64,000 bases of DNA from an uncultured Candidatus Saccharibacteria bacterium. Lineage in GTDB: Bacteria > Patescibacteriota > Minisyncoccia > UBA6257 > 2-01-FULL-56-20. Position 1 is the first letter of the stretch. Each line of letters starts with the position of its first letter. This document shows, one piece after another, positions 22,873-56,040 of the stretch. The stretch spans positions 3,867-67,866 of the forward strand of contig CAYHXC010000007.1 of the NCBI GenBank assembly GCA_964360585.1, in the 5' to 3' direction. The notes beneath the pieces were generated by a model. It did no database searches. It worked only from the letters and a program-made list of their open reading frames with translations, and had not been told where the DNA came from. A program made the position numbers and the translations under genes.

Positions 22873-22883
22873 CAGTGTATTGC

Positions 22884-23051
22884 CTAGAACCCATCTCAAA
22901 AATAGAATCACGCAGTCTTCCGGCTAGATTCGGCTATAAACCCACCCGACCCTCCTTGAAATACCATAGGGTATTCCTGTCTCGGGTCGGATGGTTCTCG
23001 CTCGAATCTATCACGGAATACCCCTGTGCCTATTTTTGAGATGGGTTCTAG
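22884..23051. mobile_element. MITE copy 2
   Basis: near-identical to 2118-2285. Confidence 0.8.
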
Positions 23052-23090
23052 GAAGAGTCGCTAAAAAATGCTATAATTTTCCCCAGAGTT

Positions 23091-28478: not shown

Positions 28479-28485
28479 TTTCTGC

Positions 28486-28653
28486 CTAGAACCCATCTCA
28501 AAAATAGAATCACGCAGTCTTCCGGCTAGATTCGGCTATAAACCCACCCGACCCTCCTTGAAATACCATAGGGTATTCCTGTCTCGGGTCGGATGGTTCT
28601 CGCTCGAATCTATCACGGAATACCCCTGTGCCTATTTTTAAGATGGGTTCTAG
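28486..28653. mobile_element. MITE copy 3; its terminal CTAG supplies the fmt stop codon
   Basis: near-identical to copy 1; the fmt stop (TAG, minus strand, 28650-28652) lies inside the element terminus. Confidence 0.8.
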
Positions 28654-29522
28654 GCAGTAGTCACTACTGGCTTGCCTGCAATCTGGAAAACTGTAATGTG
28701 AAGTTTCTGTCCTGCAATTTTTGCTCCCAGTATCTTGAGGCGATTATTGGCGGGTAAGGTGTAGGTATTCTCCTCAAGAGGTTTTTCGAGAATGGTCCAA
28801 GCTCCGGGTTCGTGTGAAAAAGCTAGGATTTTCCTAAGATTTTTTTGCGAGATTTCGAGATTGTTGCCGGCAAGCGCAATGCGGAGATCACCCTCGCTGA
28901 TTTCCGCATCGGCCGTCGTGAATTTTTTCGTCAGCGTCTTTTGAGTTTCGTCTTGAGGGGAAAGCTGTATGTTTCCTTCGAGATACTGCGGCATGGTTTT
29001 AAGAAAGATGTCGGCACCAAGTTTTGCTAGTTTTTCCTCCAGAGTTTGATAGTCGTCCTCGTCCGGCGAATAGTTTGAAAGAGCACTTGAAGCGAGAATC
29101 GGACCGTGATCAACTTTCTCGTCCATTTTATAGATTGTCACGCCAGCTGGTTCTCCCTGAAGAATAGTAGACTGAATGGGCGAAGCGCCCCGAAGACGAG
29201 GAAGAAGTGAGGGATGGATGCCAAATGTACCCTGTGGGGGCAGATCTAAGACCGCCTGCGGAATAATATGGGCGTAGGCCGCAACCAGGAAAAAATCTGC
29301 TTCGAGATTGGTGAGGATTTCAGGTGTGGGTCGTTCCGGTTGAAAGATGGGAATGGAATGGTCTTTCGCAATTTGTTTCGTGAGTGGTGGAGTCAACTCC
29401 TGTTTTCGGCCGGCTGGGCGATCTGGACTAGCCACGATTGCGAGCGGAAGTGTACCGGCGGCAATGAGTTTCTCAAGAATGATGGCGGCGAACTGCGGAC
29501 TGCCGAAAAAAACATACTTCAT
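28650..29522 (-). CDS. fmt: methionyl-tRNA formyltransferase
   Basis: MKYVFFGSPQFAA...SPDRPAGR N-terminus and overall Fmt fold-family sequence. Confidence 0.85.
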   Translation of the reverse strand: MKYVFFGSPQFAAIILEKLIAAGTLPLAIVASPDRPAGRKQELTPPLTKQIAKDHSIPIFQPERPTPEILTNLEADFFLVAAYAHIIPQAVLDLPPQGTFGIHPSLLPRLRGASPIQSTILQGEPAGVTIYKMDEKVDHGPILASSALSNYSPDEDDYQTLEEKLAKLGADIFLKTMPQYLEGNIQLSPQDETQKTLTKKFTTADAEISEGDLRIALAGNNLEISQKNLRKILAFSHEPGAWTILEKPLEENTYTLPANNRLKILGAKIAGQKLHITVFQIAGKPVVTTA

Positions 29523-30392: not shown

Positions 30393-30667
30393 AGAACCCA
30401 TCTCAAAAGTGCCACGGCGACGCGTTTCCAGATGTTTTTCCATTCCGCTAGGCACGGACTCCGAAGATGTACCCATAGGTACTTCAAGGAGGTCGGAACA
30501 ACGCGGAATGGAAAAACAGCGGAAACCCGAAGGGATATGAGCCAATTTTCACAATCTTATTTGTCGCTGCGGACTCGACGTACCAAAGGGTACGCCTTCG
30601 TCCTTACTCCTTAATCTTGTGAAAGTTGGCTCATATCGCGGCTCGCGGCACTTTTGAGATGGGTTCT
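30393..30667. mobile_element. second MITE family member (about 275 bp) with the same terminal repeats (AGAACCCATCTCAAAAGTGCC.../...GGCACTTTTGAGATGGGTTCT) but a different internal sequence rich in nested palindromes
   Basis: 22-nt perfect terminal inverted repeats shared with the 166-bp element; internal 15-bp perfect inverted repeat GTTTTTCCATTCCGC / GCGGAATGGAAAAAC. Confidence 0.65.
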
Positions 30668-43398: not shown

Positions 43399-44484
43399 CT
43401 AGAAGGCGAGATTCTGTACTTCACGAACCGTAAGAACAAGCATGAGGAGGATAAGAAGGCTGATGCCGGTCGTATTGATAACGAGTTTTGTCTTCGTACG
43501 GATGGCACTTCCCTTTAGCTTCTCAATAAAGATGAAAAGGAGATGTCCGCCATCCAAAGCCGGGAACGGAATGGCGTTTAAGACCGCGAGATTCAAGGAA
43601 ATAACACTCATCAAATGGAGAAGGTAGATGAGATTTATCTTTCCGGTCTCCTGGGCAAAGCGGAATATGCCCACTGGTCCAACCACGTCCTCGGGAATGC
43701 TGGCCTTAAAAAATATGTCACGAAGAAGGTTCGCCAGTCCCTGGACCGTCAAAACGACAATGACAACCGCCTGCTCAAACGATCGCCGGATGGCTTCAAA
43801 AAAACCCTGTCGCGGAATACCAATCGCCGTAAAACGGATGCCAAGCGTGCCTTGGTTCGGCTCGGGCATGGTTCGAAGCGTAACGGGGATAAGAACTTTC
43901 TTGCCGTCTGTTTCAACGAAAAGCTGGATCTCCCGTCCTTTATGCTGATCCACGAATTGCGAGAAGTCGTGCGCTAGTGATTCTCCATTTTCGATGGCGG
44001 TTTCTGCGGTCGTGACCGTTTCTCCAAATCCCATAATTACCTCTCCTTGCTTCAGTCCTGCAATTTCGGCCGGACTCCCCTTCTCCACATCGCCAATCGC
44101 AATTCCTTGCGGCGTGCCAATCAAGAAGACGGTGGTTAAAATGAGCCAGCCGAGCAGAAAATTCATGGCAATGCCCGCTCCGATTACGACCGCCCGTTTC
44201 CACGGCTTCTGAAACGTAAAAAGACGTTTTTTCTCCTCCGCTGAAAGATGTTTCAGGTCTTCCTCATTCTCCCCTTCGCCCGCAATTTTCACGAAACCGC
44301 CCAGCGGCAATACGTTAAAACTATACACCGTCTCACCCTTTCGTTTGGAAAATAATCGCGGTGGAAAACCAACACCGAACTCCTCTACTTTAAGGTGAAA
44401 TTTTTTAGCCGCCCAAAAATGTCCCCATTCGTGCGCCACAATTAAAACCGCGATCCCCAAAATGGTTGCGAGGGTAATGAGCAT
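43399..44484 (-). CDS. rseP: site-2 protease RseP (M50 family, with PDZ domain)
   Basis: HEWGHFWAAK (HExxH) zinc motif in the first transmembrane region; PDZ segment; C-terminal LDGG motif. Confidence 0.8.
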   Translation of the reverse strand: MLITLATILGIAVLIVAHEWGHFWAAKKFHLKVEEFGVGFPPRLFSKRKGETVYSFNVLPLGGFVKIAGEGENEEDLKHLSAEEKKRLFTFQKPWKRAVVIGAGIAMNFLLGWLILTTVFLIGTPQGIAIGDVEKGSPAEIAGLKQGEVIMGFGETVTTAETAIENGESLAHDFSQFVDQHKGREIQLFVETDGKKVLIPVTLRTMPEPNQGTLGIRFTAIGIPRQGFFEAIRRSFEQAVVIVVLTVQGLANLLRDIFFKASIPEDVVGPVGIFRFAQETGKINLIYLLHLMSVISLNLAVLNAIPFPALDGGHLLFIFIEKLKGSAIRTKTKLVINTTGISLLILLMLVLTVREVQNLAF

Positions 44485-44487
44485 TGA

Positions 44488-45045
44488 TTAGACGGAAAGT
44501 TCCTGAATTTTCTTTTCAAGCACTGCATCAATATCTTTATTGGCGTCATCGGTCACTTTTTGGATTTTTTCCTTCGCCCGAAATAACTGATCCTCGCTTA
44601 TTGTTTTCTGGCCTTCGATAATTTTTATTTTTTTATTGGCGTCGTCCCGAAGCGTCCGAATGGCGATGCGCGTTTCCTCGCTCATCTTTTTTACCGTTTT
44701 CCCAAGTTCCACGCGCCGTTCGTCAGTGAGTGGCGGAAGGAAGGCTCGGATAGTACGTTCGTCGCGCTGAACACTCAAACCCAGCTTGGCGTCCTCGATT
44801 GCTTTGATGACGCCGGAAATAACCTGCTCATCCCAGACCTGGACAACAATTTCCCGCGGCGGTTTGATACTCAATGATCCTAACTGCTTAATCGGGAGCT
44901 TCTGATCAAAATACATAACCATGATATTTTCGATCATTTCCGGCGAGGGTCGGTTGGTACGGATACCGGAAATATCCTGTTTTAGCTTCTCTCGCCGCTC
45001 GTCGAGGCGACCCGTGAGCTCTTCTATGATGACGTCTGTTTCCAT
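44488..45045 (-). CDS. frr: ribosome recycling factor
   Basis: conserved overall pattern of ribosome recycling factor (RRF). Confidence 0.85.
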   Translation of the reverse strand: METDVIIEELTGRLDERREKLKQDISGIRTNRPSPEMIENIMVMYFDQKLPIKQLGSLSIKPPREIVVQVWDEQVISGVIKAIEDAKLGLSVQRDERTIRAFLPPLTDERRVELGKTVKKMSEETRIAIRTLRDDANKKIKIIEGQKTISEDQLFRAKEKIQKVTDDANKDIDAVLEKKIQELSV

Positions 45046-45048
45046 TGA

Positions 45049-45858
45049 TTAAGAAAAAATGCTTTCTAATTGTAACCGAGGATTGAGATTCAGAGTAGCC
45101 AAGCCCCGTTTCACCTGGAGGAGCTTGAGTATGAGCCCCGTATTCTCCTTTGACTCGGCATAGGTGAGAACAAGAATAGCGTCTATTAGTCGGAGCGGGT
45201 CCTCCTCGTTATCGAGATACTCCTTGGTCAGTTTCTTCCGACTTTCGGCTGAAGCAGTTCTCATTTTCTTAGCTGTTTCAGCATAACCGCTCGCCTCTCC
45301 GAGAAGTTCGCGGAGTTTTCCGGGCGATCCGTTTGAAGCGCGGAGAAAAACATTTTTTTCTTTCGCGCTAAATTTCTCCGGTAGAAGAAGCGAGAGATCT
45401 TTCTCGCTTACTCTCGGAAAATATATTTTTTGGAACCGTGAGATGAGCGTTGGAAGAAGCGTTTCTGGATTCATGACGATGAGGATGAGGAGGCTGTTCG
45501 CTGGCGGTTCTTCGGAAATTTTGAGAAGCGCGTTTTGCGCCTGCGGTGTAAGGCAGTCGGCCTGATCAATAATAACCGTTCGTTTTTGACCGGCAATTGG
45601 CGTTTCGCTTAAGTACCACTTAATTCTTCGGGCGGTTTCTATGCCAATCGTTCCATTTTGAGGAGTAACGAGAAGCGTGTCCTGCAGAATCTGACTCGAA
45701 AGATCAAACGGCCGTCCCTCGAGATAATGGGCCAAGGCTTCAGCGCAGGTTCGTTTCCCGATACCTTCTTCTCCGAAGAATAAGTAGCTCGATGCCAGGG
45801 CTTGATTCTTGACGAGTCCTTGAATGAGATTGATCCGGATCGAATGACCAACAATCAT
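45049..45858 (-). CDS. holB: DNA polymerase III delta-prime subunit (AAA+ clamp-loader)
   Basis: AAA+ N-terminal domain with a degenerate Walker A motif (FFGEEGIGKRT). Confidence 0.65.
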   Translation of the reverse strand: MIVGHSIRINLIQGLVKNQALASSYLFFGEEGIGKRTCAEALAHYLEGRPFDLSSQILQDTLLVTPQNGTIGIETARRIKWYLSETPIAGQKRTVIIDQADCLTPQAQNALLKISEEPPANSLLILIVMNPETLLPTLISRFQKIYFPRVSEKDLSLLLPEKFSAKEKNVFLRASNGSPGKLRELLGEASGYAETAKKMRTASAESRKKLTKEYLDNEEDPLRLIDAILVLTYAESKENTGLILKLLQVKRGLATLNLNPRLQLESIFS

Positions 45859-45861
45859 AGC

Positions 45862-46917
45862 TTAAGCGCGCAGATCGTGTTTTGTAAGAAGGGTTCGCTT
45901 GTAGGCATCGAGGTGATTCAGAATAAGACCGGTGCCGCGCGCCACGCAGAGCAGTGGATGTTCGGCCACATACACCGAAACACCAAGAAATCTTTTTAAA
46001 AACTCATCGAGATAGTGAAGCTGAGAACTGCCGCCGGAGATAATAATCCCCTTTTCCATCACGTCAGCCACGAGTTCCGGCGGGGTTTCATTAAACACAC
46101 TCTGCACTGAACTGGCGATCTCAATCAGATGCGGATGGAGCGCTTCGGCCACATCGTTTGAGGTGACGAGGACATCCTTCGGCAGTCCTGACGACAGATC
46201 ACGGCCCCGCACCTGCATCGCCATTTTTTCCTTAATCGGCAAAGCTGAACCAATTTCGATTTTGACGGCTTCGGCGGTCTGTTCGCCAATCGCCAGATCG
46301 TACTTCTTTTTTACATGATCAATAATGGCCTGATCGAATTTGTCGCCGGCAATGCGGAGGCTCGTCCAGGAAACGATACTTCCTAAAGCAATAATCGCCA
46401 CTTCGGACGTGCCGCCGCCGATATTTACAATCATGCTTCCCGAACGAGCATTGATCGGAATACCCGCTCCCAAGGCCGCCAAGATCGGTTCACGAACCAG
46501 AAAAACATCGCGAGCCCCAGCTTCCTTTCCGGCGTTCACCACCGCCCGGCGTTCCGTCTGGGTGATTCCGGCGGGCACGGAGATGATCACTTCCGGTTTT
46601 ACAAAATTAAATCCGCCGACGGCGCGGGAAATGAAGTACTTCAACATTGCCCGAGTAATATAGTAGTCGGCAATGACTCCGTTTTTTAACGGGCGATAGG
46701 CCACGATCTCTTCCGGCGTTCGGCCGATCATTTCTTTGGCCTCGGCGCCAACCGCCAGTACAAAATTCTCCGGTTTGCTTAATGAAACGATGGTCGGCTC
46801 GTTAATAATGAAGCCCTTCCCCGGAACAAAGACGACGGTGTTGGCTGTTCCTAGATCGATGCCGATGCGGCGCGTGAACATAGCCCTTAATGTACGACGA
46901 AAGCTTAATTGAGGCAA
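45862..46917 (-). CDS. mreB: rod shape-determining protein MreB
   Basis: IGIDLGTANTVVF actin-fold phosphate-1 motif and downstream actin-like motifs. Confidence 0.85.
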   Translation of the reverse strand: MPQLSFRRTLRAMFTRRIGIDLGTANTVVFVPGKGFIINEPTIVSLSKPENFVLAVGAEAKEMIGRTPEEIVAYRPLKNGVIADYYITRAMLKYFISRAVGGFNFVKPEVIISVPAGITQTERRAVVNAGKEAGARDVFLVREPILAALGAGIPINARSGSMIVNIGGGTSEVAIIALGSIVSWTSLRIAGDKFDQAIIDHVKKKYDLAIGEQTAEAVKIEIGSALPIKEKMAMQVRGRDLSSGLPKDVLVTSNDVAEALHPHLIEIASSVQSVFNETPPELVADVMEKGIIISGGSSQLHYLDEFLKRFLGVSVYVAEHPLLCVARGTGLILNHLDAYKRTLLTKHDLRA

Positions 46918-46920
46918 ACC

Positions 46921-47008
46921 AGGAAGTGAAAATTCGATTGAGAATTGCGGGATGCCGCTATCGAATTTCTACTTCCTGGAAAACAAATGAACTGCCACGG
47001 CGTTACCG
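46921..47008 (-). promoter_or_regulatory. mreB leader 20-bp-stem hairpin (46921-46981) plus an upstream GC hairpin with T-run (46989-47008) that likely terminates the preceding minus-strand ORF
   Basis: CCAGGAAGTGAAAATTCGAT / ATCGAATTTCTACTTCCTGG inverted repeat; CCACGGCG-TTAC-CGCCGTGG stem followed by a T-rich run on the minus strand. Confidence 0.4.
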
Positions 47009-47059
47009 CCGTGGTTTCCCGTACAGTTCAAGCTGGGCATATAAAAAACCGCGATGTGA

Positions 47060-47413
47060 TCACGGTTTCGATAATAAGGGTACGGTATCGAAAAGCTCAG
47101 TAATTGCCCTTGCAGGGCCGCCATTAGCGGTCCGGGCGCGAGCAAAAAACATATGTGCCATATTGAAAATGTCCCGCCCTTCTGTTTCAGAAGCCTCGAG
47201 CATGTCTGTAACGATAGAATCGACTTTCCCGGTATCGCCTTGAATGGCCAGTGTCCTTGCGAGAACTTTGACAATGCGACCCAATGTATCCGCTGCAGTC
47301 TGGTACCGATACATCTCTGCTTCAAGTTCTTGGGCTCGGGATGTAGCCGCGCTCACCTTACCGCGCTTGCGAATGTTTCTCTGTTCGCGTTTTTGACTTT
47401 TCTTCTCAGTCAC
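47060..47413 (-). CDS. hypothetical protein with basic N-terminus
   Basis: ORF followed by terminator-like hairpins; no motif recognized. Confidence 0.4.
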   Translation of the reverse strand: MTEKKSQKREQRNIRKRGKVSAATSRAQELEAEMYRYQTAADTLGRIVKVLARTLAIQGDTGKVDSIVTDMLEASETEGRDIFNMAHMFFARARTANGGPARAITELFDTVPLLSKP

Positions 47414-47486
47414 GGGCGTCTCCTTTCATTTAAAAATAGCCGCAATAATAATACTCCACAGCAATTAGCGGTCAAGCCGAGTCTTC

Positions 47487-49028
47487 TTATAGGTTCTTGA
47501 TAATCTTGATGCGAGCGCCCAAAGAGTTCAAGCGGCCGCAGATGTCCTCATAGCCTCGATTGATGGAGTAGGCATTCCGGAGAATTGAAGTGCCTTCGGC
47601 CTGAAGCATGGCAATTAAAATAATAACCGCAGGGCGAAGAGCGGGGGGACAGATCACCTCGGCTCCCTTCAGTTTGGTCGGACCGTCGACGTAGACGCGA
47701 TGTGGGTCGGCAAGTAAAATATTCGCGCCGAGTTTATTCAGTTCCATGTAGTAGATGGCGCGATTTTCATAGACCCAGTCATGAATCAAGGTCGTGCCCT
47801 TCGCCTGCGTGGCAATCGGCACAAAAAATGGCAAATTGTCGATATTTAATCCGGGATAGGGGTGCGCGGCAATTTTATCTTCAAGCGCCACGAGTTTCGA
47901 GGCAAAGGTTTGTATATCGACAAGATTGGCTTGTTCATTCGCGGCCTTGTACCGTTTCAAAATTTTATACTTGAATCCCATCTTCTCAAGTTTGAGCAGC
48001 TCCACTTCCAAGAAATCGATCGGACAACGTCGGATCGTAATTTTGGAATTTGTTGTCGCCGCAATCGAGAGAAAGAGCATGGCTTCAATCGGATCCTCGG
48101 TGGGCGAAAACGTGACTGGTAAAGTTATTTCCGGTTTTCCGTGGATAGTCAATGTAGTCGTTCCAATTCCCTCAATTTTCACCCCGAGCGCAGAGAGATA
48201 AAAGCAAAGATCCTGAACCTGGTAGTTTGCCGAGGCAAACTTGATGACCGTCTTTCCAGCGAGACGAGCCGCTACCATCAGGGCATTCCCCGTCGCTGTG
48301 TCGCTTGATTCGTAGAGAACGATTTCCGTCGGGCGAAGTTTTTTCCGGGAAACTCGATACTGGTTTTTTGCTGTATCGATTTTCACACCAAAATTTTCCA
48401 AAGCATAGAGATGCGGTCGAACTGTACGTTTGCCAAGCTTACATCCTCCTGGATAGGGCAAAGAAAAATTATTTACGAGATGAAGAAGCGGGCCGAGGAG
48501 GAGAATAATACTTCGGGTCCTAATAGCCGCTTCGATGTCCAAGTTTTTAAGCAAAAGCTTCTTCGGCGGAATAACTTCGAGGTCACTTTTCCCGATCCAA
48601 CGAATACTGACGCCGATACTCGAAAGAACTTCGATGATTCGATTTACCTCCTCGATCCGCGGCATATTCTTAAAAACGGTCTTGCCTTGATTCAAGAGCG
48701 AAGCCGAGAGTAAAAAAACGGCCGAATTTTTCGAAGTTTTAACCGTAATTTCTCCCGAGAGTTTTCGTCCGCCCTGGATTTCAAAATTCACGCTTGTATT
48801 TCCCAGGGTAATAATTTCACGATTCAAAATCTGACTGATCTTTGCGAGTAAGTCTGTCGTGAAATTTTGTTCGCCTTTTTCCATCCTGGCTACGGCGCTC
48901 TGACTGGTATGGAGAGCATCGGCCAGGTTTTTTTGGGTAATCCGCCTTTCTTCACGGAGCTCCTGAATAAACTGGCCGATCCGTGACTGTTGACTGTCGT
49001 CTTTGGGCATGGCCAAATAATATATCAC
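47487..49028 (-). CDS. murA: UDP-N-acetylglucosamine 1-carboxyvinyltransferase with N-terminal XRE-type helix-turn-helix domain
   Basis: N-terminal HTH (ITQKNLADALHTSQSAVARME); MurA core with catalytic-Cys loop YPGGCKLGKRTV and SKNSAVFLL Lys motif. Confidence 0.75.
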   Translation of the reverse strand: MIYYLAMPKDDSQQSRIGQFIQELREERRITQKNLADALHTSQSAVARMEKGEQNFTTDLLAKISQILNREIITLGNTSVNFEIQGGRKLSGEITVKTSKNSAVFLLSASLLNQGKTVFKNMPRIEEVNRIIEVLSSIGVSIRWIGKSDLEVIPPKKLLLKNLDIEAAIRTRSIILLLGPLLHLVNNFSLPYPGGCKLGKRTVRPHLYALENFGVKIDTAKNQYRVSRKKLRPTEIVLYESSDTATGNALMVAARLAGKTVIKFASANYQVQDLCFYLSALGVKIEGIGTTTLTIHGKPEITLPVTFSPTEDPIEAMLFLSIAATTNSKITIRRCPIDFLEVELLKLEKMGFKYKILKRYKAANEQANLVDIQTFASKLVALEDKIAAHPYPGLNIDNLPFFVPIATQAKGTTLIHDWVYENRAIYYMELNKLGANILLADPHRVYVDGPTKLKGAEVICPPALRPAVIILIAMLQAEGTSILRNAYSINRGYEDICGRLNSLGARIKIIKNL

Positions 49029-49197
49029 ATATGATATATTGCAAGGCGAGAAGGACTGTCCCCACCGGATCCTCTTCTTTCCTCCAGCACCGAAATATCC
49101 AGATTGACTTGTTTTTTACGCCCAACTACTGTGATAAGTAGCTACAGGGCCCGAGCGTGCGCTTTGCAACCACGCTCACCTCAGCCCTCGCTAAGAG

Positions 49198-49431
49198 GCC
49201 GGAAGTTGGAGTTCGAAGCACTGCTAAGTTCACGGAGCAACGTTCCCTGAGTGACTGTAACCCTCATTACTCATGTAGTGGGGCGGGACTCTCTGACAAG
49301 AGAAATCCCTTATCTGGTCCCGTTCTGTCTCCTCTGGACCGCGTATCGCCGCGGTCGCGATGGTTCAGAACCCTGGACCTCAGTGGCACTTATTTGCAAT
49401 GGAATGGCGCAGGTTGGCTCCAACTTCCGGC
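49198..49431 (+). ncRNA. retron msr/msd non-coding RNA region bounded by a1/a2 inverted repeats
   Basis: perfect 14-bp inverted repeat GCCGGAAGTTGGAG (49198-49211) / CTCCAACTTCCGGC (49418-49431) about 205 nt apart; internal hairpins (e.g. GACCGCG..CGCGGTC); reverse-transcriptase gene starts 27 nt downstream. Confidence 0.7.
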
Positions 49432-49457
49432 GCTACTGATCAACGCGGAGGACTGAA

Positions 49458-50366
49458 ATGGTTTTTGAAAAAATAATCCAAGATCTCCCAGGAAAACCTT
49501 CCTGGGATCGCCGCACGATTCGGGATGTAAATCCCGTGAGTCGTCGTCGCAAGAAACGCCAAATTTCAGCTCCAAACCCAGCAATGCGCTTGGTCCATGA
49601 ACGACTGGTGGCGTATCTCCGGAGCACGATTTCGTACTCGCGCACGTACGCCACGGGATCTCAACCTGGCAACAGCAGTCTCGGCAACGTGAAGCGTCAC
49701 CAGAAAAACAGATGGTTCTATCTGGTCGATCTCAAGGACGCTTACCCGAGCGTTGATGGTCGGAAATTAGCATCAGTGTTAGTTTCCCTCAATCGAAAAC
49801 TACACGGACACGAAAGTGAAATCCTTGAATTCCTCCGGACATACTGCTTAACCGACCAAGAAGGCCTTTGGCCCACTGGACTGGTGGTAGGTGGACCGGC
49901 TTCCAATGATCTTTTTGAGATCTACGCCGGAAAACTTCTTGATGAACCGTTGGGCGAGTTGAGTCGGGCGTGGGGTGTAACCTACACACGGTACATCGAC
50001 GATCTAACTTTTTCGTCGCCACGCATGCCCATCGGCAAACGCAAACGAAAAGCAATTCGAGCGGTGATCGAGAAGGCGACACTCGTGATCAACCACCCGA
50101 AAAGTGGAGTTTACGATCTTCGTAAGGGTCCCGTGGTAATTACAGGAATCGGCCTCAAGCTGGGTGGTGATACTTTCCTCCCACGGTTCTTTTTGCGTCG
50201 CGTTCGAGGTTTTCTTCATCAAGTTGGCCGTAATCCAGAAATTTCCCGCGCTCAGGCGTCTGGACTAATGGGTTGTTTCTATGCGGCGAAACCCAGCAAC
50301 ATCTACACCCTTCCCTATAACCAGACGGAACGAACCCTCTTGGAAATGTTCGAATCACTATCTTGA
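49458..50366 (+). CDS. retron-type reverse transcriptase
   Basis: RT motifs: FYLVDLKDAYPSV (A), GLVVGGPASNDLFEIY (B), YTRYIDDLTFS (C, YxDD; compare Ec86 YTRYADDLTLS), LVINHPKS...RKGPVVITGIGLK (retron VTG-type motif); 302 aa. Confidence 0.85.
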   Translation: MVFEKIIQDLPGKPSWDRRTIRDVNPVSRRRKKRQISAPNPAMRLVHERLVAYLRSTISYSRTYATGSQPGNSSLGNVKRHQKNRWFYLVDLKDAYPSVDGRKLASVLVSLNRKLHGHESEILEFLRTYCLTDQEGLWPTGLVVGGPASNDLFEIYAGKLLDEPLGELSRAWGVTYTRYIDDLTFSSPRMPIGKRKRKAIRAVIEKATLVINHPKSGVYDLRKGPVVITGIGLKLGGDTFLPRFFLRRVRGFLHQVGRNPEISRAQASGLMGCFYAAKPSNIYTLPYNQTERTLLEMFESLS

Positions 50367-50367
50367 A

Positions 50368-50405
50368 ACCCAGCCCACGAGTTAATCTCGCTGGGCTTTT
50401 TTATT
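50368..50405. terminator. rho-independent terminator (bidirectional) between the reverse-transcriptase gene and glyQS
   Basis: AGCCCACGAG..CTCGCTGGGCT stem followed by TTTTTT. Confidence 0.6.
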
Positions 50406-50441
50406 ATCTTTAGAATCGTAAATAGAGGCTTTTACGATCCC

Positions 50442-51750
50442 TTACCCTATTTTTTCGCGGAGGAAGTTTTTGAGCTCACTCATGGCGATCCGCTCCTGTG
50501 CTCCAGTGTCGCGGAAACGAACAGTTACGTCGTTTTTTTCAAGCGAATCGAAATCTACAGTGATGCAAAACGGTGTCCCAATCTCGTCTTGGGCATAGTA
50601 CCGCTTTCCAATGTTTCCCCGGTCATCCCAAGCCACCATAAACTCTTTTCGCAAATCATCGTAAATCGCGCGGGCTTTCTCTGTCAGTTCTGGCTTATTG
50701 GCGAGAAGGGGAAAGATAGCGGCCTTATACGGAGCAATTCGTGGCGGCAGTTTTAGGAAAACTCGCTCCCCTTCTTCGATATAGCTCGAAAGCAAAACAG
50801 CCAAGATCGTGCGGTCGACGCCCCAGGTTGGCTCGATGACGTGGGGCAAAAACTCCTCATTTGTTTCTGGATCGCGGTATTTCAGATTCTCGCCGGAAGC
50901 CTGCTCGTGATTCTTGAGATCAAAATCACCGCGATATGCCAGACCGTAGAGCTCTTTCTGGCCAAAGGGATAGTCGAACTCAAAGTCTACCGTTCGCTTC
51001 GAGTAGTGGGCTCGATCGCCGTCAGGAATTTCGACATCATGCACTTTCGATTCATCAATGCCCACCGCGCGCATCCACTCGTGCATTAATTCCTGCCAAA
51101 CCTCGAAATGTTCCTGCCACTCCCCTTCTCGCACAAAATACTCGATTTCCATTTGCTCGAACTCACGAGTGCGGAAAATAAAATTCCCGGGTGTGATCTC
51201 ATTCCGAAAAGCTTTTCCGATTTGGGCTACACCAAACGGAAGTCGCTTTCGGGTCGTCTCTCGAATATTTTTAAACTGCACAAACATGGCCTGGGCCGTT
51301 TCTGGACGAAGATACACGATATTTGCCTCCTCCTCGGCTGGACCAAGAAAGGTCTTGAGCATCATGTTAAACTGCTGGGCCTTGGTGAACTGATCTTTTG
51401 CTCCGCAGTTCTCACAGGGTTCGTCTACGCTGATCTGATCGGCGCGGAATCGGGTGTGACATTTTTTGCATTCGATAAGCGGATCAGAAAACTCCTTCAA
51501 GTGTCCGCTCGCTTCCCAGACTTTCGGATTCATAATAAGTGCGGCATCCAATCCAACCATATCGTCCCGTTCTTGAACAAACATCTTCCACCACAGATTC
51601 TTGATATTGTTTTTTAACTGCGCGCCCAGCGGGCCGTAGTCCCAACTATTCGCCAGTCCGCCATAAATTTCCGAGCCAGGAAAAATAAAGCCGCGCCGTT
51701 TCGCGAGGCTCACGATTTTTTCCATCAAGTTTTGTTCGTTTTCGGCCATG
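50442..51750 (-). CDS. glyQS: glycyl-tRNA synthetase (dimeric class II)
   Basis: MAENEQNLMEKIVSLAKRRGFIFPGSEIYGG N-terminus; class II motifs; start set at the Met before MAENEQ rather than the longer ORF-track start. Confidence 0.85.
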
Positions 51751-51915
51751 GTTAGAGTATATTGAGAAACCCTCTTCCGTTGCAACATGTCGAGATTTTT
51801 GAGCGAAAAGCGTTCGGCCCGAAGAAGGAATACCCAGAGGTATTTCGAGGAGAGACGGAGGCTTTGCAGCCGAAAATATCGGCATGCTTGTAGAATACGG
51901 AGTTTCTCAACATGC

Positions 51916-53709
51916 TCAAGGCTGAACTGTGCGATCAACATTACCGAGACTTTGATCGTCTGGCAAGCTCGAAAGAATCGCTCCGGCGGTTACCGAATAG
52001 GCTCGGCCAATAAAATCATCATTGGCCCGAAGGATGGTTGGGCGAAGAAGGGTCATATCGTGGTCGACATAGGCGCTGGACGGTGTGGATTCAATTTGAA
52101 AAACTGCCTCGATCGGCGCGCCTAAAACACCCTGGTTGGCGGCAAGTTTATCAATCTTCCAGGAGATTTGGCCGCTGGCCGAGTTATAGATCGGCGTGCT
52201 CGAGATGTTGGCTGTCGGTTTTCCGATTAACTGGCTGTAAGGCTCGAGGAAGGAAGATATTTCTATCCGACTCACGTCGGCGGCGTAGTTCTGGAGGGTC
52301 CAACGAATGGTGTACCGGCTCGACGCATTCACCTTCGGCGGATAGGGACCGCCCTCGTGGTATCCCCTGGCTCGCAAGCCAATCTCGCCGGCCACCTTTG
52401 TTTCTGATTTTGTCTGCACAAATGTCTTCTGGCGCGAAACGCTGGGAATTGGCGTCGGCGACTCGGCTGAGCCATTTACTTTGAGAACATAATTTTTATC
52501 ACTCTGACGCGCGATCGGAAAACTATTTTTTACAAAAATACTAAAACCAATCGTCTGCGACTCCCCCGGCGGCAAACGAAGCAAACTGGGAATAGTGCCC
52601 GAGTTCCAGGTCACGGTGTTATTGATCGCATTTAAAACTCCGGAAGTCTGGAGCGTGCTCATATTAAAAAGTTCGCCGAGCAAGGTGGCTTTTAAAACGA
52701 CATTCTCAAGCGGTACCTCGGTGTTGTTCTTAATGCTCACCAGATAATCAATCTTCTCTCCCAGGCGAGCCGCGTCATTATTACTCGGCCGAATAGTGAG
52801 CGAGAGCGGCGGCGCGGCAATACTCAAGCTGGCAGATTTAGTCGTCAGAATATATTCACTTGCCCCTTCCCGCCGCGTTAAACGCGCCACCAGATTTACA
52901 AAATCACTTTCCTGACCAATCAGATTTCCGGTTATGGTCACTGTGCGAACCTCCCCGCTCTCCAGGACGCCAATCGGCCAACTCGAAGTGGCCGTCGTCG
53001 ATGACTCGCTTGTTCCGCTCAGTATAAAATTCTTGGGAAAGGCGAGGGAAAGAGTAAGATTACCGATCATTTCGCTCGTCCGGTTGTTAATCGTGATTTT
53101 TGTTTCAAAATTACCGCCGCTTAAAATAGTTTCCGGCGTCGAAAGATCAAGCGTGACGGCAGGCTGGCCGATCAAAACATCGGTTGTTTCGTTTCGTTCA
53201 AACTGGGCGCTCGAACCGCTTTGAACGTAGGTGAACTTCGCTTGAATCCGACCCACCTTCTCCGTTCCTGATGCGGCCACAATCTGCACTTCACTACTCG
53301 CAAATGACAACCGGTCGATCGTGCCAATCGATTCCTCATACACGCGCGCGCTTGGCTTTCGTTCCGTAAAGGCCATCTCCGGCGGCAAATAGATAGAGAG
53401 CGTACCGTTTTTGAGAACCTCGGTATTCGTATTTTCAATTTTCACCTTCAGAGAAAACGGCTGTCCCACGGGAACTTCGCTCGGTGCCATCAGCACCACG
53501 GACGCGCTTTGCGCCGGTTCGCTAATCAACTGCATCAAAAGAAATATACCGAGACCGATCACGAGAATGGCGCCGAGACCGATGCCGATAGGCAAAAGCG
53601 GCAAAGACACGTGTGTTTTTTTCATGACGCCGAAGTTTGGCGCAAGTTCCGGTTTTTTTGGCGCGCGTTCATCCTCCTTCCAAGGAGATTTAAAAAAAGG
53701 TTCTGGCAT
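51916..53709 (-). CDS. hypothetical large membrane-anchored protein with repeated beta-sandwich (DUF11/CARDB-like) segments
   Basis: basic N-terminus, single transmembrane helix, repetitive Thr/Ser-rich extracellular region. Confidence 0.45.
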   Translation of the reverse strand: MPEPFFKSPWKEDERAPKKPELAPNFGVMKKTHVSLPLLPIGIGLGAILVIGLGIFLLMQLISEPAQSASVVLMAPSEVPVGQPFSLKVKIENTNTEVLKNGTLSIYLPPEMAFTERKPSARVYEESIGTIDRLSFASSEVQIVAASGTEKVGRIQAKFTYVQSGSSAQFERNETTDVLIGQPAVTLDLSTPETILSGGNFETKITINNRTSEMIGNLTLSLAFPKNFILSGTSESSTTATSSWPIGVLESGEVRTVTITGNLIGQESDFVNLVARLTRREGASEYILTTKSASLSIAAPPLSLTIRPSNNDAARLGEKIDYLVSIKNNTEVPLENVVLKATLLGELFNMSTLQTSGVLNAINNTVTWNSGTIPSLLRLPPGESQTIGFSIFVKNSFPIARQSDKNYVLKVNGSAESPTPIPSVSRQKTFVQTKSETKVAGEIGLRARGYHEGGPYPPKVNASSRYTIRWTLQNYAADVSRIEISSFLEPYSQLIGKPTANISSTPIYNSASGQISWKIDKLAANQGVLGAPIEAVFQIESTPSSAYVDHDMTLLRPTILRANDDFIGRAYSVTAGAILSSLPDDQSLGNVDRTVQP

Positions 53710-54204
53710 TTATTCCACAACAATCATTGTATCCTTTTCCTTTCCGAAGGCATAGCATCGATCGCAGAAAAAATGTTGATTCATGAGATCAAAATATCGC
53801 GGCAAAGCCGCCTCGCAACTATCACAACGCGCTTCTTCTGGATCCCAACCGAGAAGACGGAGAATGATTCGCCAGGATGGCTCGTTCGCCACCACTCGCC
53901 AGAGTTCGGGATCGGCTTCATGGTCGGAAAGAAGACGGGCGAGATGGGAAAAATTGACGAGCTCCCACACAACCTTTCGCTCTTTCAAGGCATCGACGAT
54001 CGAAAGATCATTTTTTTCGATCAACCGAATGGTAGTGATGTTTCCCGGCTCGAGATGCGGTGAAAGTTTTGAGAGAATTTTTCGAGAGCTGACGGTGCGA
54101 GCCGCCATCTTGCCGACCTGACGGCTGAAAAAAGTAATCCGCTCATCCCATTCGCCGCGCGGTTCCCGTTTTAAAATAACTGCTGACGTAATGAATTCGC
54201 GCAT
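53710..54204 (-). CDS. recO: DNA repair protein RecO-like (short form)
   Basis: N-terminal OB-fold-like segment; C-terminal CDSC...CDRC zinc-finger pairs. Confidence 0.5.
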   Translation of the reverse strand: MREFITSAVILKREPRGEWDERITFFSRQVGKMAARTVSSRKILSKLSPHLEPGNITTIRLIEKNDLSIVDALKERKVVWELVNFSHLARLLSDHEADPELWRVVANEPSWRIILRLLGWDPEEARCDSCEAALPRYFDLMNQHFFCDRCYAFGKEKDTMIVVE

Positions 54205-55539
54205 CTATGTTTTTGCCGCCCGGATTCTTTTTAGCTCGTCGCGGACCACTTCGCGATCATCCCACAAAGAAAATGAACCGTTCGGTCCGACAATCGCCTG
54301 TTCGCATCCTTTTCCGGTTATGAGAACCAGTCCGCCCGACTCGGCCAAGGTCAAAGCTTTATGAATAGCTTCCCGCCGATCTTTAATCACAAAAAGATCC
54401 CGACCGTCTTTTTTTCCGCCTTCAAGAACGCCTACTTCAACTTGATTGATAATCTCCTCGGGATCTTCGTCGTAGGGATCTTCGTTGGTGACGATAACGT
54501 AATCGGCAAACTCGGCCGCCATTTTTCCTAAAACCGGCCGCCTGGCTTTATCGCGACCGCCGCCCGTTCCCCCTAAGACCTGGATAATTTTTTTATACTG
54601 CAGTGGCCGGAGTGTGGCATATAAATTGCCCATAGCTCCTGGTTCAAAAGCATAATCAACAACAATATCCCAGGGCTGACCTTCGTTTATATACTCTAGG
54701 CGGCCTGGCACAGGCGGCAGGTTTCGAACGGCGCCCTGGAGCGCTTCCCAGGAAATGCCGAGCGCTCGAGCAATGGTGAGGGCGGCCACGACATTTCGGA
54801 CGTTGTGTTCACCGCGGAGCGGTGATTCGAAAGCATGCCCATCGAGCGTGAACTTCATACCCCTGGGAGTAGTCTCTAGGTTTTGAGCGTGCAAGAGCGT
54901 TACGGCCGGCAGATTTTTGTCATGAAGCGTGAAGGCATACTTTTCCTCAACTGAAAAATCAAGAAAGTCATGGGCGTGTTCGTCATCAGCATTTACCACA
55001 ATCCGGCGCGGAATTTCCCGCTCGCCCAGTTTTTTCTTCTTTCCCGCCGCCAGATGGTCAAATAGTTTTAACTTGGCCTTTTTATAGTTCTCGAAACCGC
55101 CATGAGCTTCAATATGTTCGGGGTAAAGGTTGGTGCAAAGCAGGAGATCGTAATGAATCCCCCGGTGGCGAGACTGGTCGATTCCCTGCGAGGTGGTTTC
55201 GATAATCGCGTACTGACAGTTAGCCTTAACCATCCGGCGCAAAAACTGTTGGGTTTTAAAACGGCCGAGCATGGTCATCTTCCGATCGTTCATCTTCGAC
55301 CACTCGCCAATCTTGAAGGCAATGGTACTTAATGAACCAACCGCACTGCCGACTCCCTCAAGGAGACTATGAAGAATGAAAACGGTCGTGGATTTTCCCG
55401 AGGTGCCTGTAACGCCAATCACCGTCAGTTTTTCCGACGGAAAGCCGTACCACAGCGCGCCCAGCTCGGCTAAACTGCGGTGGTAGAGCGCGAGGACAAA
55501 GGGCGGCGTAATCTTCAAAATTGCGGTTTTAAGTGACAT
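54205..55539 (-). CDS. Mur ligase family protein (MurE/MurF-like)
   Basis: VIGVTGTSGKSTT P-loop; central and C-terminal Mur ligase domains. Confidence 0.65.
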   Translation of the reverse strand: MSLKTAILKITPPFVLALYHRSLAELGALWYGFPSEKLTVIGVTGTSGKSTTVFILHSLLEGVGSAVGSLSTIAFKIGEWSKMNDRKMTMLGRFKTQQFLRRMVKANCQYAIIETTSQGIDQSRHRGIHYDLLLCTNLYPEHIEAHGGFENYKKAKLKLFDHLAAGKKKKLGEREIPRRIVVNADDEHAHDFLDFSVEEKYAFTLHDKNLPAVTLLHAQNLETTPRGMKFTLDGHAFESPLRGEHNVRNVVAALTIARALGISWEALQGAVRNLPPVPGRLEYINEGQPWDIVVDYAFEPGAMGNLYATLRPLQYKKIIQVLGGTGGGRDKARRPVLGKMAAEFADYVIVTNEDPYDEDPEEIINQVEVGVLEGGKKDGRDLFVIKDRREAIHKALTLAESGGLVLITGKGCEQAIVGPNGSFSLWDDREVVRDELKRIRAAKT

Positions 55540-55872: not shown

Positions 55873-56040
55873 TTAGAACCCATCTCAAAAATAGAATCAC
55901 GCAGTCTTCCGGCTAGATTCGGCTATAAACCCACCCGACCCTCCTTGAAATACCATAGGGTATTCCTGTCTCGGGTCGGATGGTTCTCGCTCGAATCTAT
56001 CACGGAATACCCCTGTGCCTATTTTTAAGATGGGTTCTAG
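55873..56040. mobile_element. MITE copy 4; its terminal CTAG supplies the stop codon of the downstream minus-strand ORF
   Basis: near-identical to copy 1; the stop (TAG, minus strand) at 56037-56039 lies inside the element. Confidence 0.8.

Follow-up and report, generated by a model that had tools for sequence, protein, structure and literature searches.

Retrons have since 2020 been understood as three-part immune systems in which a DNA product restrains an adjacent toxin, and their subtypes are defined by accessory-protein features (PMC7736814, PMC10849725). The locus analysed here raises the question of what a retron-type reverse transcriptase (RT) may amount to where no such accessory protein is encoded. 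In a Patescibacteria genome, an RT gene and a folded non-coding RNA form a unit of about 1.4 kb in the spacer between glyS and murA. The earlier note on this DNA had proposed a compact retron at this place, consisting of RNA and RT and lacking an adjacent effector. Here, we examined the unit within the window, i.e., the whole 64-kb stretch of DNA that was analysed, and compared it with related loci. The RT reading frame, its retron motifs and the inverted repeat reported in that note were all found where it had put them, and the coordinates of the features are collected in Table 1.

Table 1. Features of the RNA-RT unit and of its flanking genes (window positions).
Feature	Position	Strand	Description
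HTH-MurA	47487-49028	-	divergent neighbour of the RT gene
Insertion	49046..50441	+	about 1.4 kb; extent judged against relatives without the unit
Leader	49046..49197	+	weak TTGACT-17-TACTGT promoter-like site at 49104-49132; hairpin at 49153-49177
msr-msd-like non-coding RNA	49198..49431	+	234 nt; fold and architecture shared in about 30 family loci
a1 arm	49198..49213	+	perfect over 49198-49211 (GCCGGAAGTTGGAG); contains GTTGGAG
Junction helix P3, 5' strand	49247..49251	+	CUGAG, pairs with 49379-49383
Hairpin H1	49261..49283	+	9 bp, loop UCAU, -11.3 kcal/mol; first msr-like hairpin
Hairpin H2	49285..49309	+	GGGA...UCCC outer stem, 5-bp inner stem, loop GACA, -10.2 kcal/mol; second msr-like hairpin
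Long hairpin H3	49316..49379	+	64 nt, 22 pairs, -32.5 kcal/mol, z = -4.2; predicted msd/template stem
CCUCAG(C/U)GG motif	49378..49386	+	conserved; CUCAG is the 3' strand of P3
a2 arm	49416..49431	+	perfect over 49418-49431 (CTCCAACTTCCGGC); followed by GCUAC (family consensus CGCUG)
Retron-lineage RT	49458..50366	+	302 aa, ATG start, no fused domain
Intrinsic terminator	50372..50402	+	bulged hairpin 50372-50397, then T-run; -15.5 kcal/mol, z = -5.1
GlyRS	50442-	-	neighbour on the other side

The insertion consists of the RNA, the RT gene and a terminator

Two relatives, L083 and L086, offer empty sites for comparison. The distance from the GlyRS stop codon to the start of HTH-murA is 62-65 nt in these relatives versus 1413 nt in the window, and similarity to the empty site picks up again at window position 49045. 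Thus, the whole insertion corresponds to RNA, RT and terminator, and its placement between murA and glyQS, as claimed previously, is borne out. The MurA proteins of these relatives are 72-79% identical to that of the window; since the unit is nevertheless missing from them, its inheritance is not simply vertical. No direct repeats flanking the insertion, terminal repeats or target-site duplication were found around the unit, and its GC content is that of the surroundings.

The leader in front of the RNA contains a hairpin of -11.8 kcal/mol (z = -3.2). A promoter scan of the + strand returned no consensus sigma-70 promoter, and the leader showed no similarity to other family loci. A hairpin terminator does follow the RT gene, as had been stated; its hairpin is bulged, which is why a simple terminator scan overlooked it, and the T-run (50397-50402) amounts to T6 only if the last base of the stem is counted.

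The RT groups with retron enzymes

Judged by its sequence, the window RT is of the retron lineage and has intact catalytic residues. A GGAGGA ribosome-binding site lies ahead of the reading frame at 49447-49452, and the public annotation gives a shortened protein of 260 aa. Retron RTs are recognised by two regions, X with NAxxH and Y with VTG (PMC7736814). In the window RT, GNVKRH aligns with the NAxxH box, VITG represents region Y, and GPVVITGIGLK aligns with VTGV of Ec83 and VTGL of Ec86, while YTRYIDDLTFS aligns with YSRYADDLTFS (Ec83) and YTRYADDLTLS (Ec86). Among 28 family members, residues N77, H81, D91, D181, D182 and G230 vary little or not at all.

Profile and structure searches gave a consistent assignment. 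Apart from the general Pfam match to RVT_1 (2.7e-14), the RT matched the NCBIfam retron St85 family at 1.7e-25, its best 25 PADLOC matches were all retron RT models with RT_VI at the top, and its sequence matches in the PDB were Ec83 and Ec86. Models of other RTs were weak: group_II_RT_mat reached 2.8e-4 (20 bits versus a cut-off of 300), and Drt3a (2e-4) and Drt2 (3e-3) fell far under their model cut-offs. In a Foldseek search with the AF2 model (pLDDT 91.6), the best 14 matches were retron RTs with TM-scores up to 0.75; group II, DRT2, DGR and DRT9 RTs were also returned, with lower scores, the DGR RT at rank 25. The RT therefore sides with retron RTs and not with those of group II introns, DGRs or Abi/DRT systems in PADLOC, NCBIfam, PDB and Foldseek alike. 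The subtype is less distinct. RT_VI scores 90 bits on the window RT versus 215 bits on a true type VI member and does no better than the III-A, II-A or X models; each of the retron RT models is matched by all 28 aligned family members (1e-26 to 1e-39), and the best E-value across the RT family belongs to RT_III-A.

The RNA in front of the RT gene has an msr-msd layout

The earlier note had placed a non-coding stretch about 230 nt upstream of the RT gene. This distance was given loosely: with a length of 234 nt, the RNA stops 26 nt short of the RT start codon. Folding of a 251-nt stretch gave -109 kcal/mol (z = -5.5). The RNA is closed by a perfect 14-bp inverted repeat, a1/a2, which reaches 16 bp if two G-U pairs are counted, and which lies within the range of more than 8 bp that is used as a criterion for retron non-coding RNAs (PMC10849725). 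When the 64-kb window was block-shuffled 50 times, no perfect 14-mer inverted repeat with a spacing of 100-400 nt arose, and the other real 14-mer inverted repeats of the window all come from one unrelated MITE-like repeat. By definition (PMC7736814), the repeat of a retron RNA encloses between one and three short msr hairpins together with a variable, long msd stem-loop. The two short hairpins and one long hairpin found inside the a1/a2 duplex have this layout, H3 being a purely thermodynamic prediction.

The GTTGGAG of a1 is an instance of the semi-conserved family motif TT(A/G)G(A/G)(G)AG (TTAGAG, TTGGAG, TTGGGAG). Branching guanosines of retrons are often preceded by TTA (PMC10849725), and 49209, 49211 and 49215 are candidates for the putative branching G; the first G after the a1 helix varies in position from +1 to +7 across family loci and is not conserved. 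An Rfam scan of 48900-50500 at E <= 10 yielded three chance matches only. Within the 64-kb window no further copies or targets of the RNA were found, and its primary sequence resembles none of the RNAs at other loci.

The RNA architecture is conserved across the family

The same architecture was observed in about 30 fetched family loci. The a1 and a2 arms of these homologous loci differ in sequence yet are complementary, so that the conservation of pairing, on which the retron reading was to be checked, is upheld. When control windows from these loci were scored as well, their median was 9.2, against 12.3 for the enclosing inverted repeats (p = 1.8e-10). Since the arms were chosen through an inverted-repeat search, this evidence of pairing is partly circular; its support comes from the control-window comparison and from the fixed position of the arms relative to H1.

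The hairpins were followed with a covariance model of the H1/H2 module (R1, 16 seeds). It has a single match in the 64-kb window (49260-49312, E = 3.6e-10) and detects the module beside the RT gene, on the RT strand, in more than 30 loci, non-seed loci included. Among 38 sequences, eight of the nine H1 pairs show double changes and the four modelled inner pairs of H2 all covary, which supports the internal hairpins proposed before. Paired cells make up 88.8% of the H1/H2 alignment, against 64% once it is shuffled; double changes occupy 157 cells, and none of 500 shuffles scored as high. The junction helix P3 occurs as CUGAGG/CCUCAG or UUGAAG/CUUCAG in about 17 of 28 loci, and the CCUCAG(C/U)GG motif lies 22-62 nt ahead of a2 in most loci. 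In 21 of 28 loci, H2 is followed after 0-7 nt by a helical domain that is long (median 117 nt) and variable; the variable spacers of the RNA are beyond MAFFT alignment. In most loci the RNA lies upstream of the RT gene, and in ten it lies downstream, an arrangement found in a subclade. This occurrence on either side argues for an independent RNA partner over a 5'-UTR regulator.

The unit belongs to a large Patescibacteria family

A profile search with the family returned 551 cluster representatives at E<1e-30, of which the best 150 are mostly about 300 aa long; family RTs measure about 295-345 aa and, with one exception, have no extra domain. RT and RNA travel together through this large, Patescibacteria-specific family. 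The neighbours in family loci are housekeeping genes (sigma-70, HU, RNase Y, GreA, MiaA, UvrB, MraZ). The nearest relatives retrieved outside the Candidate Phyla Radiation (CPR) were Bacteroidota type VI retron loci (L029-L055) with 25-33% identity. No relatives were found in IMG/VR, and phage and plasmid records gave distant retron RTs only, below 30% identity. In one syntenic group of loci the RT is about as diverged as the host neighbour genes, which suggests long residence. Within the library searched, no paper linking retrons with CPR or Patescibacteria was found, and none on effector-less retrons.

No effector gene is linked to the unit

The cognate accessory or effector gene, or fused domain, of tripartite retrons is absent, and the insertion holds only RNA and RT. 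Across 40 loci there is no conserved neighbour gene, as no gene family occurred in more than 3-5 of the 40 within 2-6 kb; applied to 27 type VI loci as a positive control, the same approach recovered their HTH partner in 24. The effector-less state is common to the fetched loci. Thus, the absence of an adjacent effector, noted originally at this one locus, holds in view of both the two empty sites and the 40 neighbourhoods. When the search was widened to effectors acting in trans, PADLOC returned weak Cas4-like and mad2 matches only for the 36 large open reading frames (ORFs) of the window, and small ORFs around the window RT had no PADLOC match. An HTH_VI HMM run over 49 CPR loci gave nothing beyond weak matches to three HTH-MurA genes.

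Two groups of ORFs were considered as candidates and rejected. Same-strand ORFs downstream of the RT gene in 20 loci were housekeeping genes (GreA, MiaA, UvrB, MraZ, glutaredoxin-like, others) or low-complexity spurious frames. ORFs overlapping the RNA, e.g., 49157-49456 (99 aa), are unconserved, differ in strand between loci and have no PADLOC matches, so that a coding or DRT2-like 'neo' reading was dropped.

Comparison with known retrons and RT-RNA systems

Type VI retrons combine a clade 3 RT with a small Cro/C1 HTH protein and a helper of 75-79 aa (Mestre et al. 2020, PMC7736814). Their RTs are, like that of the window, small and without a fused domain, and in PADLOC the window RT matches RT_VI best; however, HTH_VI and SP_VI, which stand directly upstream of the type VI RT, occur in none of the 49 CPR loci, and the H1/H2 RNA model matches nothing in eight type VI loci. 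In a census, clade 3 and 4 retrons gave almost no RT-DNA in E. coli (PMC10849725). With Ec86/Eco1 (type II-A), Ec83 and Ec78/Eco7 (type I-A) the window RT shares the full-length RT fold, and the NAxxH, YxDD and VTG motifs align in Ec83 and Ec86. Classical retrons and the unit also have in common an RNA beside the RT gene in which an a1/a2 duplex is combined with short hairpins of the msr type and a long one of the msd type. In contrast, sequence identity to the classical RTs is about 20%, and their adjacent toxin (nucleoside deoxyribosyltransferase-like, or ATPase plus HNH), restrained by msDNA, has no counterpart at the window unit. The window RNA also differs in that its a1/a2 helix runs on into the long-range pairings P2 and P3 before the hairpins, and part of the family has the RNA 3' of the RT gene.

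DRT2 and DRT9, of the UG/Abi lineage, likewise comprise one RT and one structured RNA without a separate effector protein, and their cDNA product itself acts as the effector. Among the Foldseek matches, 9c0i, 9nlv and 9vma are RT-ncRNA complexes of these systems. Their RTs belong to another lineage and are larger (about 410-500 aa); the likeness is one of working principle and parts list only. Myxobacterial type XIII retrons are vertically inherited (PMC7736814) and resemble the window unit in being chromosomal, outside prophages and plasmids, but have their own winged-helix/SWIM proteins and an N-terminally extended RT.

A minimal two-part retron as the probable explanation

We consider it probable that the unit is a complete yet minimal two-part retron, effector-less, which entered the glyS-murA spacer as a self-contained element of about 1.4 kb; its retron identity as such is very likely. 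The large group to which it belongs is apparently undescribed and never carries a linked toxin gene. An RT of the group II intron, DGR or Abi/DRT class next to an incidental inverted repeat is hardly plausible. The fold search does contain RTs of these kinds, but retron models and structures are ahead of them by many orders of magnitude. Neither an intron RNA nor any other Rfam family is present, a template/variable repeat pair was not found (direct repeats in 48990-50500 do not exceed 19 nt), and repeat and hairpins are conserved alongside the RT. A type VI-like retron that uses the divergent HTH-MurA fusion as its HTH partner would fit the adjacent, divergent arrangement of the two genes, the top rank of RT_VI and the best PADLOC match of the MurA N-terminus, HTH_VI at 6e-11. 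That match, however, is limited to the generic XRE core, on which other XRE models score alike, and an HMM of true HTH_VI gives 20-25 bits on HTH-MurA versus 80-90 on real partners. Moreover, HTH-MurA (about 505 aa, same domain pair) is 66-80% identical across its best 120 matches, has 8000 candidates at E<=1e-20, far more than the RT family, has the RT as a neighbour within 6 kb in just 3 of 40 loci, and persists, with its operator-like palindrome conserved, in the relatives that lack the RT. This partner is thus largely refuted and its role in a retron scarcely credible: the divergent HTH-MurA neighbour was correctly described, but it is an ordinary, highly conserved Patescibacteria MurA and not a partner of the retron.

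A tripartite retron with its effector in trans is unlikely, though it deserves some weight given that characterised retrons all need an accessory toxin (PMC7736814, PMC10849725). The effector might then be unlinked and encoded beyond the window, or it might be the lineage-specific 117-aa ORFan at 47060-47413 past murA. Like the retron, this ORF is missing in L083 and L086, whose murA-mreB spacers measure 113 and 66 nt versus about 570 nt in the window, but it found only itself among 5.8 billion proteins, occurs in none of 48 other RT loci and has no Pfam or PADLOC match, while the Cas4-like and mad2 matches elsewhere in the window are weak. To our knowledge, effectors of known retrons are always adjacent, which also speaks against action in trans. 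We regard as rather improbable a selfish retroelement that spreads itself between intergenic sites and has no host function. A clean insertion without cargo, the many different housekeeping contexts and an RNA that begins 13-19 nt past the upstream gene in L005 and L009 agree with it; against it stand the single copy in the 64-kb window, the lack of target-site duplication, terminal repeats and any endonuclease or integrase domain, the matching GC content, the RT-neighbour divergence in one set of loci, and the fact that, among prokaryotic RTs, those of group II introns alone have been shown to be autonomously mobile (PMC7736814). Finally, a decaying retron remnant, deprived of its effector and no longer functional, could account for the missing effector and the shortened public annotation. 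This is very improbable in view of the intact ORF, the catalytic and hallmark residues invariant across the family, the perfect inverted repeat and the RNA helices upheld through compensatory changes; the effector-less state, furthermore, spans the fetched loci and hundreds of representatives of about 300 aa, not one locus.

Proposed mode of action and significance

For the minimal two-part retron we propose that the RT would recognise the conserved H1/H2 hairpins, while the a1/a2 duplex would offer the 2'-OH of a G within or just past a1. From the inner end of a2 the RT would then copy the RNA leftward through H3, and the product would be branched multicopy single-stranded DNA (msDNA). On balance, msDNA synthesis by the unit is slightly more probable than not. 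The RT-RNA-DNA complex could act as a sensor of phage or foreign DNA whose output is not a cis-encoded toxin; the effector might be the complex or the cDNA synthesis itself, or the system may act via an unlinked or host protein. A defence role is conceivable, although we lean somewhat against it. More tentatively, and on balance doubtfully, this Patescibacteria-confined retron lineage may work without any protein effector, the RT-RNA(-msDNA) complex being the complete system, with a cDNA effector as in DRT2/DRT9 but independently evolved, or with a domesticated host function.

RTs of the CPR have been thought to be about 80% DGRs (PMC8632793), and the family described here extends retrons into this radiation. 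Since retron subtypes are defined via accessory proteins, effector-based detection would probably miss it. The family shows that a retron RNA can occupy either side of the RT gene, and its very compact RT-RNA units, of about 1.2 kb with an RT of about 300 aa, have a conserved and well-defined RNA scaffold and may be of interest for retron-based genome editing. It also gives a natural setting in which to ask how a retron RT and its DNA act by themselves. If the lineage is truly effector-free, the rule of a tripartite, toxin-antitoxin-like organisation would no longer hold for retrons.

The window RT is a retron-lineage polymerase

The 302-aa reverse transcriptase (RT) ORF contains a Pfam RVT_1 domain, and the ORF, its RT motifs and the inverted repeat 5' of it were all found where the earlier note had placed them. 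The 25 best PADLOC matches of the protein were all retron RT models (RT_VI 3.8e-26, III-A 4.8e-25, II-A 1e-24, X 7.6e-24), and in NCBIfam the retron St85 family reached 1.7e-25 versus 2.8e-4 for group II maturase RT, 2e-4 for Drt3a and 3e-3 for Drt2. Among PDB sequences the top matches were the RTs of retrons Ec83 and Ec86, with which the window protein could be aligned at the NAxxH box (GNVKRH in the window), at YTRYIDDLTFS (YSRYADDLTFS and YTRYADDLTLS, respectively) and at VITGI (VTGV and VTGL). An AlphaFold model was built with 28 homologues as input (pLDDT 91.6). In a fold search with this predicted structure, 14 retron RT structures ranked first, over the full length and with TM-scores of up to 0.75, followed by group II, DRT2, DGR and DRT9 enzymes. 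No extra domain was found in the window RT. The public protein record (P0001, 260 aa) begins at Met43, and conservation in the family starts at residue 1 of the 302-aa ORF.

A word-indexed search returned 55 homologues with 35-50% identity; those with a source name were labelled Patescibacteria/Parcubacteria or just 'bacterium'. When 1.84 billion cluster representatives were searched with a profile, 551 reached E<1e-30, and about 300 aa was the usual length among the 150 best of these. Residues N77, H81, D91, D181, D182 and G230 are fully or almost fully conserved in the family alignment, and all 28 aligned members matched every retron RT model at similar strength, so that no type stands out. 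No relatives were found in IMG/VR, and phage and plasmid records held only distant retron RTs (<30% identity). Only one family RT (locus L028, 5908-7167) carries a long C-terminal extension, about 120 aa past the usual end. By sequence and predicted structure, the window RT is a retron-lineage polymerase whose catalytic residues are intact.

A cognate RNA is maintained by compensatory changes

The arms of the terminal inverted repeat, a1 and a2, form a helix of 16 bp when two G-U pairs are counted. Fifty shuffles of the window produced no perfect 14-mer inverted repeat with arms 100-400 nt apart, and the remaining real ones all come from a MITE-like repeat family. Each copy of this family carries a 22-nt terminal inverted repeat, CTAGAACCCATCTCAAAAATAG, at its two ends; the family has no Rfam match and shares no sequence similarity with the retron RNA. 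The 251-nt stretch that includes the a1/a2 repeat folds at -109 kcal/mol (z = -5.5), and this RNA has no match in Rfam either. A stable leader hairpin (49153-49177, GAGCGUG...CACGCUC, -11.8 kcal/mol) lies about 20 nt 5' of a1.

Features of the retron-type unit and other elements in the window
Feature	Coordinates	Strand	Remark
a1 arm, GCCGGAAGTTGGAG	49198-49211	+	perfect reverse complement of a2
a2 arm	49418-49431	+	perfect reverse complement of a1
Hairpin H1	49261-49283	+	recurrent module
Hairpin H2	49285-49309	+	recurrent module
Long helical domain after H2 (H3), 64 nt	49316-49379	+	z = -4.2
GGAGGA 5' of RT ORF	49447-49452	+	read from sequence
RT ORF, 302 aa	49458-50366	+	ORF call
Bulged hairpin, then T-run, 3' of RT ORF	50372-50402	+	-15.5 kcal/mol, z = -5.1
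Insertion	about 49046-50441		152-nt leader, RNA, RT, terminator
117-aa ORFan between murA and mreB	47060-47413	-	very basic N-terminus
MITE-like repeat, four near-identical copies, about 168 nt	2118-2285, 22883-23052, 28482-28657, 55874-56039
MITE-like repeat variant, 275 nt	30393-30667

The comparison covered 28 loci from genomes and about 20 from metagenomes. Most of them have a 10-18-bp inverted repeat spanning 190-380 nt and adjoining the RT; it varies in sequence between loci and scores well above the repeats in control windows taken from these loci (median 12.3 versus 9.2, Mann-Whitney p = 1.8e-10). Inside it two adjacent hairpins recur: H1, with a 9-bp stem and a YCAY-type loop closed by AC...GU, and H2, with an outer stem GG...CC. 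RNAalifold predicted both from 16 hand-extracted modules; 12 of the 13 pairs showed compensatory changes. A covariance model made from these modules gave 38 matches in 584 kb. Apart from two weak ones, these are on the RT strand and adjoin the RT, non-seed loci included; the single match in the window is at 49260-49312 (E = 3.6e-10). In the resulting alignment 88.8% of cells pair; the share is 64% in shuffles and falls to about 40-50% if the partner is shifted by 1-3 columns. None of 500 shuffles reached the observed values, including 157 double-change cells; being model-fitted, the alignment is biased toward structure, though the margin is large all the same. In about 17 of 28 loci the hairpins are enclosed by a short junction helix, P3, which reads CUGAGG/CCUCAG or UUGAAG/CUUCAG, the latter with a compensated G-C to A-U change. 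H2 is followed by a long, variable helical domain (family median 117 nt), and many loci have a CGCUG-like motif 3' of a2. No primary-sequence similarity of the RNA was found between loci.

Retron msr-msd transcripts are defined by such an arrangement, with hybridising terminal repeats around a long msd stem-loop and one to three short msr hairpins (PMC7736814; PMC10849725). In a subclade of ten loci (L002, L007, L017, L019, L057, L059, L060, L064, L065 and L067) the RNA and the repeat around it are instead found 14-393 nt 3' of the RT stop. Its occurrence on either side of the gene makes a 5'-UTR regulator unlikely and supports the RNA as a partner or template. The covariation shows, at the level of sequence, a cognate RNA of predicted retron architecture kept by compensatory evolution, and RT and RNA are co-inherited. 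Some loci have two or three H1-H2 modules 5' of one RT (L006 4863/5272/5618; L003 5428/5733; L001 122/389; L011 4560/4662), which may be tandem or degenerate RNA copies; the first module of L003 has its own plausible a1/a2 (5379-5389/5563-5573).

The unit is inserted between the GlyRS and MurA genes

The nearest MurA relatives (79% and 72% identity) are on contigs with exactly the gene order of the window: Mur ligase, RecO, a 600-aa protein, GlyRS, HTH-MurA, MreB, HolB, RRF and RseP. There GlyRS and MurA are 62-65 nt apart, versus 1413 nt in the window, and homology resumes at window position 49045; the insertion therefore consists of leader, RNA, RT and terminator. The RT is the sole + strand gene within a long run of - strand genes. 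Neither flanking direct repeats nor a compositional anomaly of the insertion were found. Relatives have a GlyRS of 427-434 aa, whereas the window ORF (50442-51941) is listed with 499 aa; its start is therefore over-called.

On the other side of murA, the murA-mreB spacer of relatives is just 66-113 nt, and the window has there a 117-aa ORFan, a second lineage-specific insertion flanking this gene. A database search returned only the ORFan itself, and neither Pfam nor PADLOC gave a match.

The RT has no effector in cis

BLASTP clustering of all ORFs within 6 kb of the RT in 40 loci gave no conserved neighbour, just small housekeeping-synteny clusters (sigma-70, HU, RNase Y, O-antigen ligase, HtrA, ABC ATPase). 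ORFs 3' of the RT on its strand were GreA, MiaA, UvrB, MraZ and similar, or spurious. A more sensitive comparison, all-against-all phmmer of 958 ORFs of at least 45 aa within 2 kb of the RT, detected no family shared by more than three loci. An ORF of 54-80 aa, about 400-900 nt 5' of the RT in three syntenic loci (L004 5124-5366, L016 5059-5223, L018 5327-5566, minus strand), may be a small gene or else conserved non-coding sequence read as an ORF.

As a positive control we used the Bacteroidota loci L029-L055, distant matches of the same scan that are true type VI retrons (e.g., L032: RT_VI 2e-64, HTH_VI 1.8e-25, SP_VI 9e-6 in PADLOC). The HTH_VI gene lies directly 5' of the RT in 24 of these 27 loci. 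An HMM of this partner found nothing in 49 CPR loci beyond 20-25-bit matches to three HTH-MurA genes. With empty sites in relatives, no common neighbour in 40 loci and a partner that is detectable in the type VI control, a cis effector is absent, which bears out the earlier note's view that none is adjacent.

HTH-MurA was rejected as a retron partner. The best PADLOC match of its N-terminus is HTH_VI (6e-11), which covers the generic XRE core only and is barely above other XRE models. These bacteria have the fusion as their ordinary MurA: at E<=1e-20 there are 8000 candidates, and the 120 best matches are all about 505 aa, HTH_3 plus EPSP_synthase, with 66-80% identity. Directly 5' of the HTH-murA start, overlapping the predicted murA promoter, a palindrome ATATATCA(Y)ATATGATATAT is conserved in three genomes with or without the RT (window 49019-49040; RT-less relatives L083 5966-5992 and L086 5967-5990), and is likely an operator for MurA's own HTH domain.

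Elsewhere in the window, the 36 ORFs of at least 180 aa outside 43399-55539 include one PD-(D/E)XK/Cas4-like protein (PADLOC Cas4 1.4e-9, Pfam PDDEXK_1 1.3e-14), and a LexA-like repressor lies at 616-1326; the rest is housekeeping.

Possible mechanism and role of the unit

The unit has the RT and the RNA of a retron and lacks the third component, a cognate effector. Type VI retrons are defined by an HTH partner, which is missing here, and the two-component systems DRT2 and DRT9 are similar in parts list but belong to a different RT lineage. A full-text literature search found no paper tying retrons to CPR lineages and no description of effector-less retron clades; a 2021 review puts the share of DGRs among CPR RTs at about 80% (PMC8632793).

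The RT would bind the H1/H2 hairpins and use as primer the 2'-OH of a G located within a1 or shortly 3' of it. Copying would then start at the inner end of a2, pass through the CCUCAG stretch and H3, and leave a branched msDNA. The semi-conserved a1 motif TT(A/G)G(A/G)AG (GTTGGAG in the window) recalls the 'TTA-G' consensus of retrons (PMC10849725), yet the a1 helix extends past it. One caution is that type VI RTs are clade 3 enzymes (PMC7736814), and a retron census obtained almost no RT-DNA from clades 3 and 4 (PMC10849725).

An effector might be encoded elsewhere, unlinked to the RT; the 117-aa ORFan is likewise specific to the window's genome, but has no homologue at all. The unit could instead be a selfish retroelement. 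Its absence from relatives counts against strict vertical descent, and in one syntenic group the RTs have diverged (35-45%) about as much as host neighbours (25-49% in most pairs compared), which argues against a recently mobile element. A further alternative is that the unit is a relic. Over these readings we favour a role in defence or sensing, in which the output of the unit would be something other than a linked toxin.
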